DNA of 64,000 nt, taken from NCBI GenBank assembly GCA_902782665.1, contig CACZOA010000094.1, positions 10,028 to 74,027 on the forward strand, read 5' to 3'. Positions 38,582 to 47,510 of this stretch are shown here, in pieces. This DNA comes from an uncultured Bacteroidales bacterium (GTDB taxonomy: Bacteria; Bacteroidota; Bacteroidia; Bacteroidales; Paludibacteraceae). The number at the start of each line of letters is the position of its first letter. Position 1 is the first letter of the stretch. The notes under the pieces were generated by a model, which worked only from the letters and a program-made list of their open reading frames with translations, did no database searches and was not told the DNA's origin. Both the position numbers and the translations under genes were made by a program.

Positions 38582-39790
38582 TTATTCTGCTGTAGTATTA
38601 TCTACCAATTTCTTCATTCCGTCGAAATTGAATCCTAGAGAGAATCGCAATGTTCTGTCAAGAGGACAAGTACTGCTTGAACGAGATGCTATCAAATAAG
38701 CAGCACTAAGTTCAAACACTTTCATCTTGAATCCGACTCCGGCTGCAAAATACTTTCTGTTTCCTTTTGTCTCATTCTCGTGGAAATATCCGAAGCGAGC
38801 CATGAACATGTCTCTGTATGAGTATTCTGCTCCCAAACTCCATGTTACTTCCTTCATTTCCTCGCCAAAACCACCTGAATCACCGAAAGATTTGAAGATT
38901 CCTGAGATTGCACCATGGTCACGGTATTTTTGCAATGCATCCTCATATTCCTCTCTGGTTTCGTAGTCATCTTCAAGAGGAGTTGTTGGAACAAGAAGCT
39001 TGTTCAAGTCGAATGACACAGCGAACTTGTTGTATGCGTCAACAGGGAATTCGTAATTGACTCCTAATCTCCAGTTGGTAGGAAGATACTGATATGTCGC
39101 TCCGTCATCATATGTAGGCTTAGCACCGATGTTTGAGATGTTAGTACCGAAATTCAACTTTGCGACTCTCTTGTCTGACAAGTCAAATGGGCGGCTATAG
39201 AATGCAGAAACGTCGGCTGCAACTGTTTTAGCTGCAGAGTATGCCTCTTCGTCAACAACTCCGTTCATCAAATCAGAAAGAATGAATCTTAGTGCTACGG
39301 ATGCGTTCCAATACTGGCTCAATGCACGTGAGTAAGCGACGTCGATAGCCATCTCGTATGGTTTTGCTGTTCCCTGTGAAATGACCTCTCCTGAAGGGCC
39401 AGGCATATCAGACAAGTTGATTTCTCCATATGAGAAGTATCTCAATGAAGCCGACAACGCTTGTTTTTCATCTAGTTTATAGTAGCCAACAAGGTATCCA
39501 AGGTTGATGTCATTTACAATGCTTCTTAGCCAAGGAGTGAAAGAGATCGCTACACCTCCTTTGTTTTCCATTGTGGCATATTTCGATGGATTCCAATGTT
39601 GAGAATATAGGTCGGCGGAGGTTGCTGCACCAACATCTCCCATACCACCACCTCTTGCATCAGGGGCAATACTCAATGAAGGTATTGCAGTCTGTAAAGG
39701 GTTGAAGTAATCGCTTTTCTTTTCTGCGCTTACACTCAATACGGATAGCATTATAGCTGTCCCTGCCAAACTCGCTTTTATTCTTTTCAT
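38582..39790 (-). CDS. porV: T9SS outer-membrane shuttle protein PorV (LptO)
   Basis: 402 aa with a signal peptide, SLSIAPDARGGGMGDVGAATSAD, and a beta-barrel pattern. Lies immediately downstream of porU, as in other Bacteroidetes. Confidence 0.92.
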   Translation of the reverse strand: MKRIKASLAGTAIMLSVLSVSAEKKSDYFNPLQTAIPSLSIAPDARGGGMGDVGAATSADLYSQHWNPSKYATMENKGGVAISFTPWLRSIVNDINLGYLVGYYKLDEKQALSASLRYFSYGEINLSDMPGPSGEVISQGTAKPYEMAIDVAYSRALSQYWNASVALRFILSDLMNGVVDEEAYSAAKTVAADVSAFYSRPFDLSDKRVAKLNFGTNISNIGAKPTYDDGATYQYLPTNWRLGVNYEFPVDAYNKFAVSFDLNKLLVPTTPLEDDYETREEYEDALQKYRDHGAISGIFKSFGDSGGFGEEMKEVTWSLGAEYSYRDMFMARFGYFHENETKGNRKYFAAGVGFKMKVFELSAAYLIASRSSSTCPLDRTLRFSLGFNFDGMKKLVDNTTAE

Positions 39791-39842
39791 CTATCTATTC
39801 TATTTTTTATCTTTCTACTTATTTAACGTGCAATATTACTAT

Positions 39843-47000: not shown

Positions 47001-47510
47001 TGTGTATGTAGACTCTTTGACGACCCCTTCCGTCAACTTATCTGCATACTTGATTTTTGGTGCCTCTGTATTTTCTTCGTGTAGGAAATAGTATGAGTGG
47101 TCAGATGTGTAGTTTTCAGTTATGCCGATATTGTTTGTCGAGCTTTCGTTTATCTTTGCCAACCCTACGACTCCTCTGAGGTAGAATACGATTCTATCTC
47201 CCAGATCCACGATCTGTTGGTCGGCCAAGTCGTCGACATACTGATTGCTTTCTTTGAAATCTTCGTCAAGCAACTCTCCTCCATATCCACGTAGATGTAC
47301 GTTCTTCGGGTTGGAGAATCCCATTTTGCGTAGTTCTTCGTATGTGAATGAATATATTCCTTCTTCTTGAACACGGATTTTTACTGTTCGTCCGCTCGAC
47401 AATATTGATCTATTGGTATAAGAACGCATGTTTTGAGCGTTGATTTCTCCACTGATGGCGGTCAATGTCATAGCAACTGCGCATGACAATATTTTTCTTA
47501 ATAACTCCAT
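44037..47510 (-). CDS. PorU paralog (T9SS sortase-like C25 peptidase), copy 2
   Basis: 1157 aa, colinear with copy 1 over the full length with high identity. Retains NYLGHSSYNAIS, WFAGSCNLSQFDD and the C-terminal CTD-like domain. Confidence 0.9.
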   Translation of the reverse strand: MELLRKILSCAVAMTLTAISGEINAQNMRSYTNRSILSSGRTVKIRVQEEGIYSFTYEELRKMGFSNPKNVHLRGYGGELLDEDFKESNQYVDDLADQQIVDLGDRIVFYLRGVVGLAKINESSTNNIGITENYTSDHSYYFLHEENTEAPKIKYADKLTEGVVKESTYTAIKWQKFDDINIAKTGRNWYGSKFNDGDSKKFTFQFDNIIAGATGYIYSNIMTSSTSISEFSILTNTTNKSEDFDKRKIKAENEDEYILGFEKTIVVDVTQSEDNTISATYKYSTESITGAGYIDYIIAAANCNLRSNVDYQMIPIGPSSKKTNITYAALNSNSTIQVWDVSEIGDVRRVPTRLSKDSLIFTVQTRPTVGRYIMFNPNGGFPTPEVVGNVDNQNIHALKDIEYVVVTNPEFIDQAKEIADFHQKEDGMSTVVVTADQVFNEFSSGTPDPTAIRAFMKMLWDKASVSDYGIFPQYLLLIGDGTFDNRGKIKTNENNKMLTYQSVKSLSESTSYTSDDYFGYVEDNTSGYDYIHMNKRLNIGVGRFPVTTAKQAEALVDKVKQYYASEPGNWRTKIVALGDDNEKTETTSSSYHAFLYQQEEAISTIESAEPRMNVSRIYWDKYTCDVSGGSNRYPEVTAEITKKFSEGTLIFNYLGHSSYNAISAEHAYSITQAKSIYNKIYPLWFAGSCNLSQFDDLRPSFGEEIILNSHGGAIASIGAVRTAYITANLSIDKAFLRQTFNSDNDYRLGKIYREAKTQLGSYSDKSYYVLLGDPGIRLKIPELNLVVDSIVTLNRDGSVVKADTLKALSKVKVYCHVEDETGNVLSQYNGVARATLKDKKTKIATKANKVFTREVDNKKVFERADPFNYYEYTNTLYSGSSVISNGKFDFQMIIPKDINYKVDYGRLSMYAYDEENGWDAMGANEDILIGGSASDIEPDDVGPYINVTTNGGNYKDGYKVNPNPMIYVDLADASGINVTGSSIGHNITLTIDENTKNVINLNSYFSYNTSSCTEGRVEYHTEEALSEGWHTIKVKAWDLQNNSSESTIKIYVCENIAPDIETLTVYPNPVKDKFTAYIKTNRPDEVQTMECTLLDLSGRQISRKDLKDKTTDGTWKIEWNLNDSGRISNGLYLLYVRIATEKSDFAEKTEKIIVVDQ

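Follow-up and report, generated by a model that had tools for sequence, protein, structure and literature searches.

The 64-kb stretch of contig CACZOA010000094.1 analysed here (hereafter the window, to which positions refer unless a locus is named) comes from an uncultured Paludibacteraceae bacterium found in gut metagenomes of cattle, sheep and goats. Its open reading frames (ORFs) include four co-oriented genes on the minus strand, which encode PorV, two copies of PorU, a type IX secretion system (T9SS) sortase, and an FAH-family hydrolase. The porV gene (38582-39790) encodes the sole outer-membrane shuttle and anchor barrel at the locus; it matched PF19572 with 216 bits and the PorV model NF033710 with 461.7 bits (cut-off 250), and its PorQ and PorV2 scores were below the cut-offs of those models. 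A gap of 52 nucleotides (nt) separates porV from PorU-A (39843-43253, 1136 amino acids), the conserved paralog, named PorU1. The FAH-family gene (43269-43880, PF01557 170 bits) is the conserved 5′ neighbour of porU and is separated from PorU-B by a spacer (43881-44036) which is homologous to the sequence upstream of FAH in relatives and contains the motif AAATTTGCGAAATTGG. PorU-B (44037-47510, 1157 amino acids) is a fast-evolving mosaic paralog, PorU2, that has moved upstream of FAH; it shares the orientation of porV and is 4.2 kb upstream of it. A first-pass annotation, made by a model from the letters and ORFs alone, had also placed an FAH gene between two PorU copies and found one porV, with which the profile matches agree.

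The region upstream of PorU-B (47511-47632, minus strand) contains a promoter-like TTGCGA-17-TATAAT site. A terminator-like hairpin, whose 11-bp stem precedes a run of T, is located 3′ of porV (38521-38546, minus strand) and is a member of a dispersed repeat. Scans of the locus for sigma-70 promoters and terminators gave nothing above shuffled sequence, and both sites are descriptive only. The motif TTGCGAAATT was common to 47524-47552 and 43881-43915, shortly 5′ of the PorU-B and FAH starts. A shared promoter or regulator site is one possible reading of the motif, whose presence in front of both genes suggests two transcription units.

Two intact PorU paralogs

PorU-A and PorU-B were colinear over their full length; BLASTP aligned them with 74% identical and 87% positive residues and with gaps at 21 positions. 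Both matched the PorU model NF033707 (cut-off 420 bits) over model positions 1-1094/1095, PorU-A with 928.9 bits and PorU-B with 909.5 bits, and each contained a complete Peptidase_C25 domain (PF01364, 294 bits each). The C25 His and Cys contexts NYLGHSSYNAIS and WFAGSC were found in both copies, as the first-pass annotation had reported. The catalytic codons are His647 (41313-41315) and Cys680 (41214-41216) of PorU-A and His656 (45543-45545) and Cys689 (45444-45446) of PorU-B, all on the minus strand. These residues aligned to the His and Cys of Porphyromonas gingivalis PorU (PDB 6ZA2, E 4e-130), and both columns were invariant in an 84-sequence alignment reaching down to 30% identity.

Both proteins also end in a C-terminal T9SS sorting domain (CTD), encoded on the minus strand at 44040-44339 in PorU-B (PF18962, Por_Secre_tail, 29.8 bits; TIGR04183 24 bits) and at 39846-40145 in PorU-A (26.8 and 21.9 bits, respectively). 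The PorU-A domain is just below both cut-offs (27 bits for PF18962 and 23 bits for TIGR04183), yet it is 77% identical to PorU-B over the CTD and is a type A CTD. The N-termini of both proteins consist of a hydrophobic helix ending in ..NAQ, a candidate Sec signal peptide.

An AlphaFold2 model of PorU-B (mean predicted local distance difference test score, pLDDT, 89.6; predicted template modelling score 0.86) had 6ZA2 as its best Foldseek match, with an E value of 9e-80 and a template modelling score of 0.52-0.56 over the multidomain chain. Like P. gingivalis PorU, to which they are similar in length, the window proteins have N-terminal beta domains, the C25 domain, immunoglobulin (Ig)-like domains and an uncleaved CTD in that order, and the His/Cys pair and the adjacency to porV are common to both systems. 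Identity to 6ZA2 was only ~24-33%, and PorU2 differs from the P. gingivalis protein in having added loop and hairpin insertions. The gingipains RgpB and Kgp, which are C25 proteases and T9SS cargo, were the second-best fold matches. They share the catalytic fold and pair with PorU but are cargo from which the CTD is removed, do not have the PorU N-terminal domains, and matched only over the protease and Ig-like region.

NCBIfam also uses the names PorU2 and PorV2 (NF052324 and NF052325) for a putative second PorU-related sortase and its partner in some Bacteroidota. Membership of the window proteins in NF052324 was rejected, as PorU-A (126.2 bits) and PorU-B (123.8 bits) fell far short of its cut-off of 450, and the window porV scored 24 bits against the PorV2 cut-off of 325. 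The NCBIfam pair is thus a distinct and distant family, whereas the PorU2 described here is a recent paralog within the true PorU family.

The PorU ORFs were intact in 22 of 22 cases across the window and loci L001-L012, and the catalytic His and Cys were kept in all 18 copies that were extracted for codon alignment. Among 56 distant PorUs, 155 alignment columns were deeply conserved (90% or more); PorU-A departed from these at 13 positions and PorU-B at 16, for the most part at sites common to both. PorU-B as a pseudo-enzyme was rejected on the retained catalytic pair and on a number of deviations near that of PorU-A. The ratio of non-synonymous to synonymous substitution rates (dN/dS) between PorU-A and PorU-B was 0.115, with dS saturated at 1.33; both genes are under purifying selection. 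Additionally, contigs at least 99% identical to the window covered PorU-A and PorU-B in the bovine rumen metatranscriptomes X25, X26 and X27, at similar low depth. The proposal in the first-pass annotation that both sortases are active is thus supported as far as sequence can show.

The first-pass annotation had also described long stretches of the two genes as alike at the DNA level. This amounts only to a uniform DNA identity of 75%, and the longest exact match was 32 nt. Recent gene conversion between PorU-A and PorU-B was rejected on this match length and on the proportion of synonymous differences (pS), which was 0.47-0.84 in every 60-codon window.

An old duplication with one fast-evolving, mosaic copy

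Copy number was surveyed by scanning one genome per GTDB species, with additional contig look-ups. The order FAH-PorU-PorU-PorV, a direct tandem, was found in L001, L003, L004, L005 and L006 and also in L013 and L014. The order of the window, PorU-FAH-PorU-PorV, was found in L008 and L009, and L002 had one intact PorU. The next outgroups, L010 (55% identity) and L011 (40%), carried a single-copy FAH-PorU-PorV locus. Identity of PorU-A to the FAH-adjacent PorU was 85-93% in all relatives, and these FAH-adjacent copies formed one clade with PorU-A in neighbour-joining trees (92-97% bootstrap); it is this clade that we named PorU1. All copies of the two-copy genomes were monophyletic relative to the single-copy outgroups in 100% of bootstraps. 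The second copies were treated as one paralog, PorU2, because nearly all of them share an insertion of 9-21 residues of variable sequence at PorU-B residues 849-867 (residues of PorU-B are hereafter prefixed B), which is not present in PorU1 or in the single-copy outgroups.

L006, the most divergent two-copy genome, already encoded both PorU1 and PorU2 at a flanking-gene dS of ~1, and the duplication is therefore older than the radiation of the clade. It is old and common to a genus-level clade of ruminant-gut Paludibacteraceae, with single-copy nearest outgroups. The window order is a secondary rearrangement in which PorU2 left its place between PorU1 and porV and now lies upstream of FAH. 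The first-pass annotation had taken the intervening FAH gene to mean that this was not a simple tandem duplication, which is misleading, as relatives carry the direct tandem FAH-PorU1-PorU2-PorV. L002 retained the upstream region of a B-type gene and its initial ~40 codons (MELLRKILSC...) directly 5′ of FAH, beyond which the sequence was decayed or deleted (L002:9850-10440), evidence of at least one loss of PorU2. A comparison with L001 revealed no counterpart of the region upstream of PorU-B.

FAH was directly 5′ of porU-porV in most of 80 distant Bacteroidales loci as well as in the outgroups L010 and L011; this synteny between a small-molecule hydrolase and T9SS attachment genes is old. Two PorU copies were present in only one of 78 distant metagenome PorU loci, L080; P. 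gingivalis and the other 77 loci have one porU, unlike the two copies of unequal rate in the window. In L080 (6513-13447) the tandem PorUs were 51% identical and were mutual best hits. The Muribaculaceae locus L007 also encoded two PorUs (3905-7327 and 13691-17065 of that locus), which were 33% identical and 6 kb apart. Like the window copies, these are located at or near FAH-porU-porV and are catalytically intact, with the His and Cys kept in all four, but they represent separate events. In the alignment, the His motif of the PorV-adjacent copy of L007 reads SYMGH. Nothing relevant to duplicated or multiple PorU was found in the open-access papers searched.

The two paralogs differ in rate. 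Between orthologues, dN/dS was 0.065-0.09 for PorU1 and 0.11-0.30 for PorU2; the highest value was that of PorU-B against the second copy of L008 (0.30), compared to 0.07 for the corresponding PorU-A pair. Mean pairwise dN of PorU2 was 1.4-3.1 times that of PorU1 and exceeded it in every domain. The excess was highest in an N-terminal beta domain (B 126-305), at 3.1 times, and in the protease domain, at 2.4 times.

Column entropy delimited a first hypervariable patch, with a length-variable loop, in the N-terminal beta domain (B 196-285; 46656-46925, minus strand), where values were 0.9-1.4 in PorU2 and 0.3-0.6 in PorU1 and the sequences fell into discrete allele classes. The insert KRKIKAENEDEY (B 246-257; 46740-46775, minus strand) is within this patch, and residues 248-253 of the PorU-B model had a pLDDT below 50. 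A second hot spot (B 829-880) is in the Ig-like domain that follows the protease domain and contains the PorU2-specific insertion KVFTREVDNKKVFERADPF (B 849-867; 44910-44966, minus strand), modelled by AlphaFold2 as an extra beta-hairpin with strands at 850-855 and 858-863. Both inserts are as the first-pass annotation gave them. It had described the differences between the copies as concentrated in two patches, but two segments of the C25 domain (B 403-778) were elevated too. One is a PorU2 hot spot at B 574-630 and the other the variable C-terminal part of the domain (B 719-779; 45174-45356, minus strand), with a column entropy of 0.14 in PorU1 and 0.75-0.78 in PorU2.

Alignment of PorU-B with the PorV-adjacent PorU2 of L001 revealed a recombination tract at codons 99-406 (46293-47216, minus strand), with 6 mismatches in 921 aligned nt (99.3% DNA identity). 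The remainder of the two genes was ~75% identical, with a pS of 0.55-0.9 outside the tract. The reverse pattern was found with the second copy of L008, which was 97.8% identical to PorU-B over codons 402-938 and most diverged over codons 86-370, where pS was 0.5-0.68 and the proportion of non-synonymous differences (pN) was up to 0.45. These mosaic patterns of identity indicate that segments of PorU2, including the hypervariable patch, have been exchanged between lineages, and this exchange reaches across genes at different positions in the locus. PorU-B and the PorV-adjacent second copies are thus alleles of one gene, segments of which have been exchanged among lineages through homologous recombination.

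A further allele from run X29, aligned to 45727-47565 of the window, was 97% identical at its 5′ end, unalignable (<80%) over codons ~98-274 and ~89% identical downstream. This variant belongs to a co-occurring strain, in which it is expressed or carried.

Divergence of the locus was not confined to PorU2. When the window was compared with L001, L002 and L005, dS was 0.01-0.35 for the flanking genes HD, SUI1, YajC, Dxs and NusB but 1.0 for FAH, 1.1-1.24 for PorU-A and 0.64-0.76 for PorV. The dS of the window FAH was ~1.0 against every relative except L008, against which it was 0.08. The order B-FAH-A therefore appears to travel as a haplotype, and this haplotype appears to have recombined into an otherwise closely related background. 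PorV was itself variable among close relatives (81-92% amino acid identity, compared to 98-100% for nusB), and its residues ~271-300 form an acidic loop rich in insertions and deletions.

Proposed roles of the two sortases

PorU is regarded as the single-copy housekeeping end-station of type IX secretion, and how it decides between release and anchoring of cargo is an open question (PMC10202324). The locus is a conserved FAH-porU-porV attachment module of the T9SS in which the sortase was duplicated early; with moderate confidence, we favour the reading that PorU1 is the housekeeping copy and PorU2 a diversifying accessory sortase. Both proteins are predicted from their sequences to be Cys/His CTD peptidase-transpeptidases, and they would be exported via Sec and then the T9SS. 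PorU is held on PorV through its CTD (PMC10202324, PMC12365241), and the uncleaved CTDs of PorU-A and PorU-B would bind the single PorV, retaining both at the cell surface. PorU1 would handle housekeeping cargo processing. PorU2 would be an accessory sortase, dispensable in some lineages, whose exposed modules diversify under a strain-variable pressure; candidates are surface recognition by phage, predators or host antibodies, and co-adaptation to variable cargo or acceptor glycan.

There is precedent for duplicated T9SS machinery genes being kept as functional paralogs in GldJ/GldK and GldN/GldO of Flavobacterium johnsoniae (PMC10202324). Those proteins differ in being core periplasmic ring components and not a surface sortase. 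We know of no description of hypervariability or mosaic exchange affecting one paralog of either pair.

Three observations weigh against an early duplication followed by diversification of one copy. Firstly, the PorU2 sequences were paraphyletic in neighbour-joining trees, where they formed a ladder of long branches. This ladder is probably a rate artefact aggravated by recombination, and on that reasoning, together with the shared insertion, we infer that PorU2 is likely to be one paralog from a single duplication. Secondly, dN/dS never exceeded 1, and in the hypervariable patch pN/pS was ~0.66 with dS saturated; relaxed constraint is therefore inseparable from diversifying selection. Thirdly, the depth of metatranscriptome contigs is a crude measure of expression in which DNA carry-over is possible.

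An accessory, diversifying PorU2 has wider implications. The pattern suggests that, in a dense gut community, a surface attachment complex can come under pressure to diversify at the level of strains, and a clade with one conserved and one diversifying sortase offers natural variants with which to map the substrate, acceptor and partner surfaces of PorU. A bolder proposal, possible but doubtful in our estimate, is that in rumen Paludibacteraceae porU1-porU2-porV acts much like an O-antigen or receptor locus, as a surface cassette that varies between strains. PorU2 would then be a second active sortase, and frequency-dependent selection would keep its swappable N-terminal and Ig-like modules diverse. 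The selection would come from recognition by phage, protozoa or antibodies, or from the matching of strain-specific acceptor glycans or cargo sets. If this were true, sortase specificity or antigenicity would be swapped horizontally as gene segments.

The divergence could instead reflect a strict partition of cargo, with each sortase processing its own class of CTD or cleavage site, or one serving released and the other anchored substrates. On this view, the changes within the protease domain and near it would stem from substrate specificity and not from surface variation. The near-invariance of B 719-779 in PorU1 and its variability in PorU2 fit this explanation, as does the 2.4-fold excess of PorU2 dN in the catalytic domain, and the choice between release and attachment by PorU is an acknowledged open question (PMC10202324). 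We regard such a partition as unlikely, however: variation was strongest in beta domains that are not catalytic and in loops that are disordered or inserted, the PorU2 alleles differed from each other as much as from PorU1, which misfits one fixed second specificity, and PorU2 was lost in one lineage. The version put forward in the first-pass annotation, a split between type A and type B CTDs, also looks unlikely, because type B cargo is reported (PMC9143113) to use PorP-like anchors and not PorU-mediated attachment to anionic lipopolysaccharide. Its further suggestion, that one PorU copy serves a CTD-bearing mini-protein of the rhs locus, found no support.

PorU-B might also be a redundant duplicate in decay, equivalent to PorU-A or near useless, under relaxed constraint and kept by chance or for dosage. 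Its non-synonymous rate is raised in all domains, its dN/dS against the L008 copy is 0.30 where the PorU-A pair gives 0.07, the B-type gene has decayed in L002, and the duplication is rare elsewhere (one of 78 distant loci). Nevertheless, the second copies were intact in every other two-copy genome across saturated dS, and dN/dS remained at 0.1-0.3. The catalytic positions were also kept, with departures at conserved sites that hardly outnumbered those of PorU-A (16 and 13 of 155), and the recent spread of near-identical segments between lineages implies that these segments are in use. Redundancy is accordingly an improbable account of the second copy.

In P. gingivalis, PorU is latent as a dimer, the active site of one monomer being obstructed by a beta-hairpin of its partner (PMC10202324; dimerisation is also in the title of PDB 6ZA2). 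By analogy, PorU2 might act as a regulatory partner that pairs with the main sortase in heterodimers and adjusts the latency of the latter, for instance through the hairpin inserted in PorU2; the model shows B 849-867 as an additional beta-hairpin adjoining the protease domain. This is pure analogy, the insertion is absent from P. gingivalis PorU in the alignment to 6ZA2, and the full catalytic apparatus of PorU2 would be superfluous in a pure regulator; we consider the idea very improbable.

As the organism is uncultured and close strains with different alleles share its habitat, two strain variants of one porU could in principle have been joined in one contig of the metagenome-assembled genome (MAG), but this can be dismissed with near certainty, since the independent contigs L008 and L009 and a 16.4-kb contig of DNA run X4, which spans the whole locus, give the same order, PorU-A and PorU-B were equally deep in four DNA runs, and relatives have two copies too. 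Near-identical proteins at NCBI (MBR6597530.1 and MBR6597532.1) are both labelled PorU, and for annotators, two PorU labels in one MAG are not necessarily an assembly error. Overall, the functional reading in the first-pass annotation was partly supported; it missed the clade-wide duplication, the difference in rate and the mosaic nature of PorU-B.

Repeats and other genes of the window

The dispersed intergenic hairpin repeat GAGACGCAC-N-GTGCGTCTC was found at 38523-38549, 48079-48105 and 20527-20553, and it flanks the SUI1/PorU-B/FAH/PorU-A/PorV block on both sides. Another short repeat, GTCCCMACAATTAYGMATTATGAATTAT, is concentrated around a DUF6794 gene (48158-48910), and further repeat sites of the window are at 48119-48161, 48949-48991, 49000-49026 and 49066-49108. 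Contigs of the DNA runs jump between repeat sites, and there must therefore be many copies of the repeats in the genome. Joints of 9.6 kb in the DNA contigs were considered as a deletion variant, which was rejected as they arise from the short dispersed repeats. The DUF6794 gene is hypervariable among close relatives, with 57-88% amino acid identity and dS values that range from 0.4 up to saturation; the genes next to it are 97-100% identical between close relatives.

Elsewhere in the window, tandem 75-nt repeats (16902-17327) are present within an ORF (16875-19016) that encodes a 713-amino acid coiled-coil-like protein of no clear family. The window also encodes a 2009-amino acid SpvB/FG-GAP/RHS-repeat toxin-like protein (4085-10114), a C10 (streptopain-like) peptidase with an I69 inhibitor prodomain (22359-23786) and a Fic/DUF4172 protein (25070-26359).

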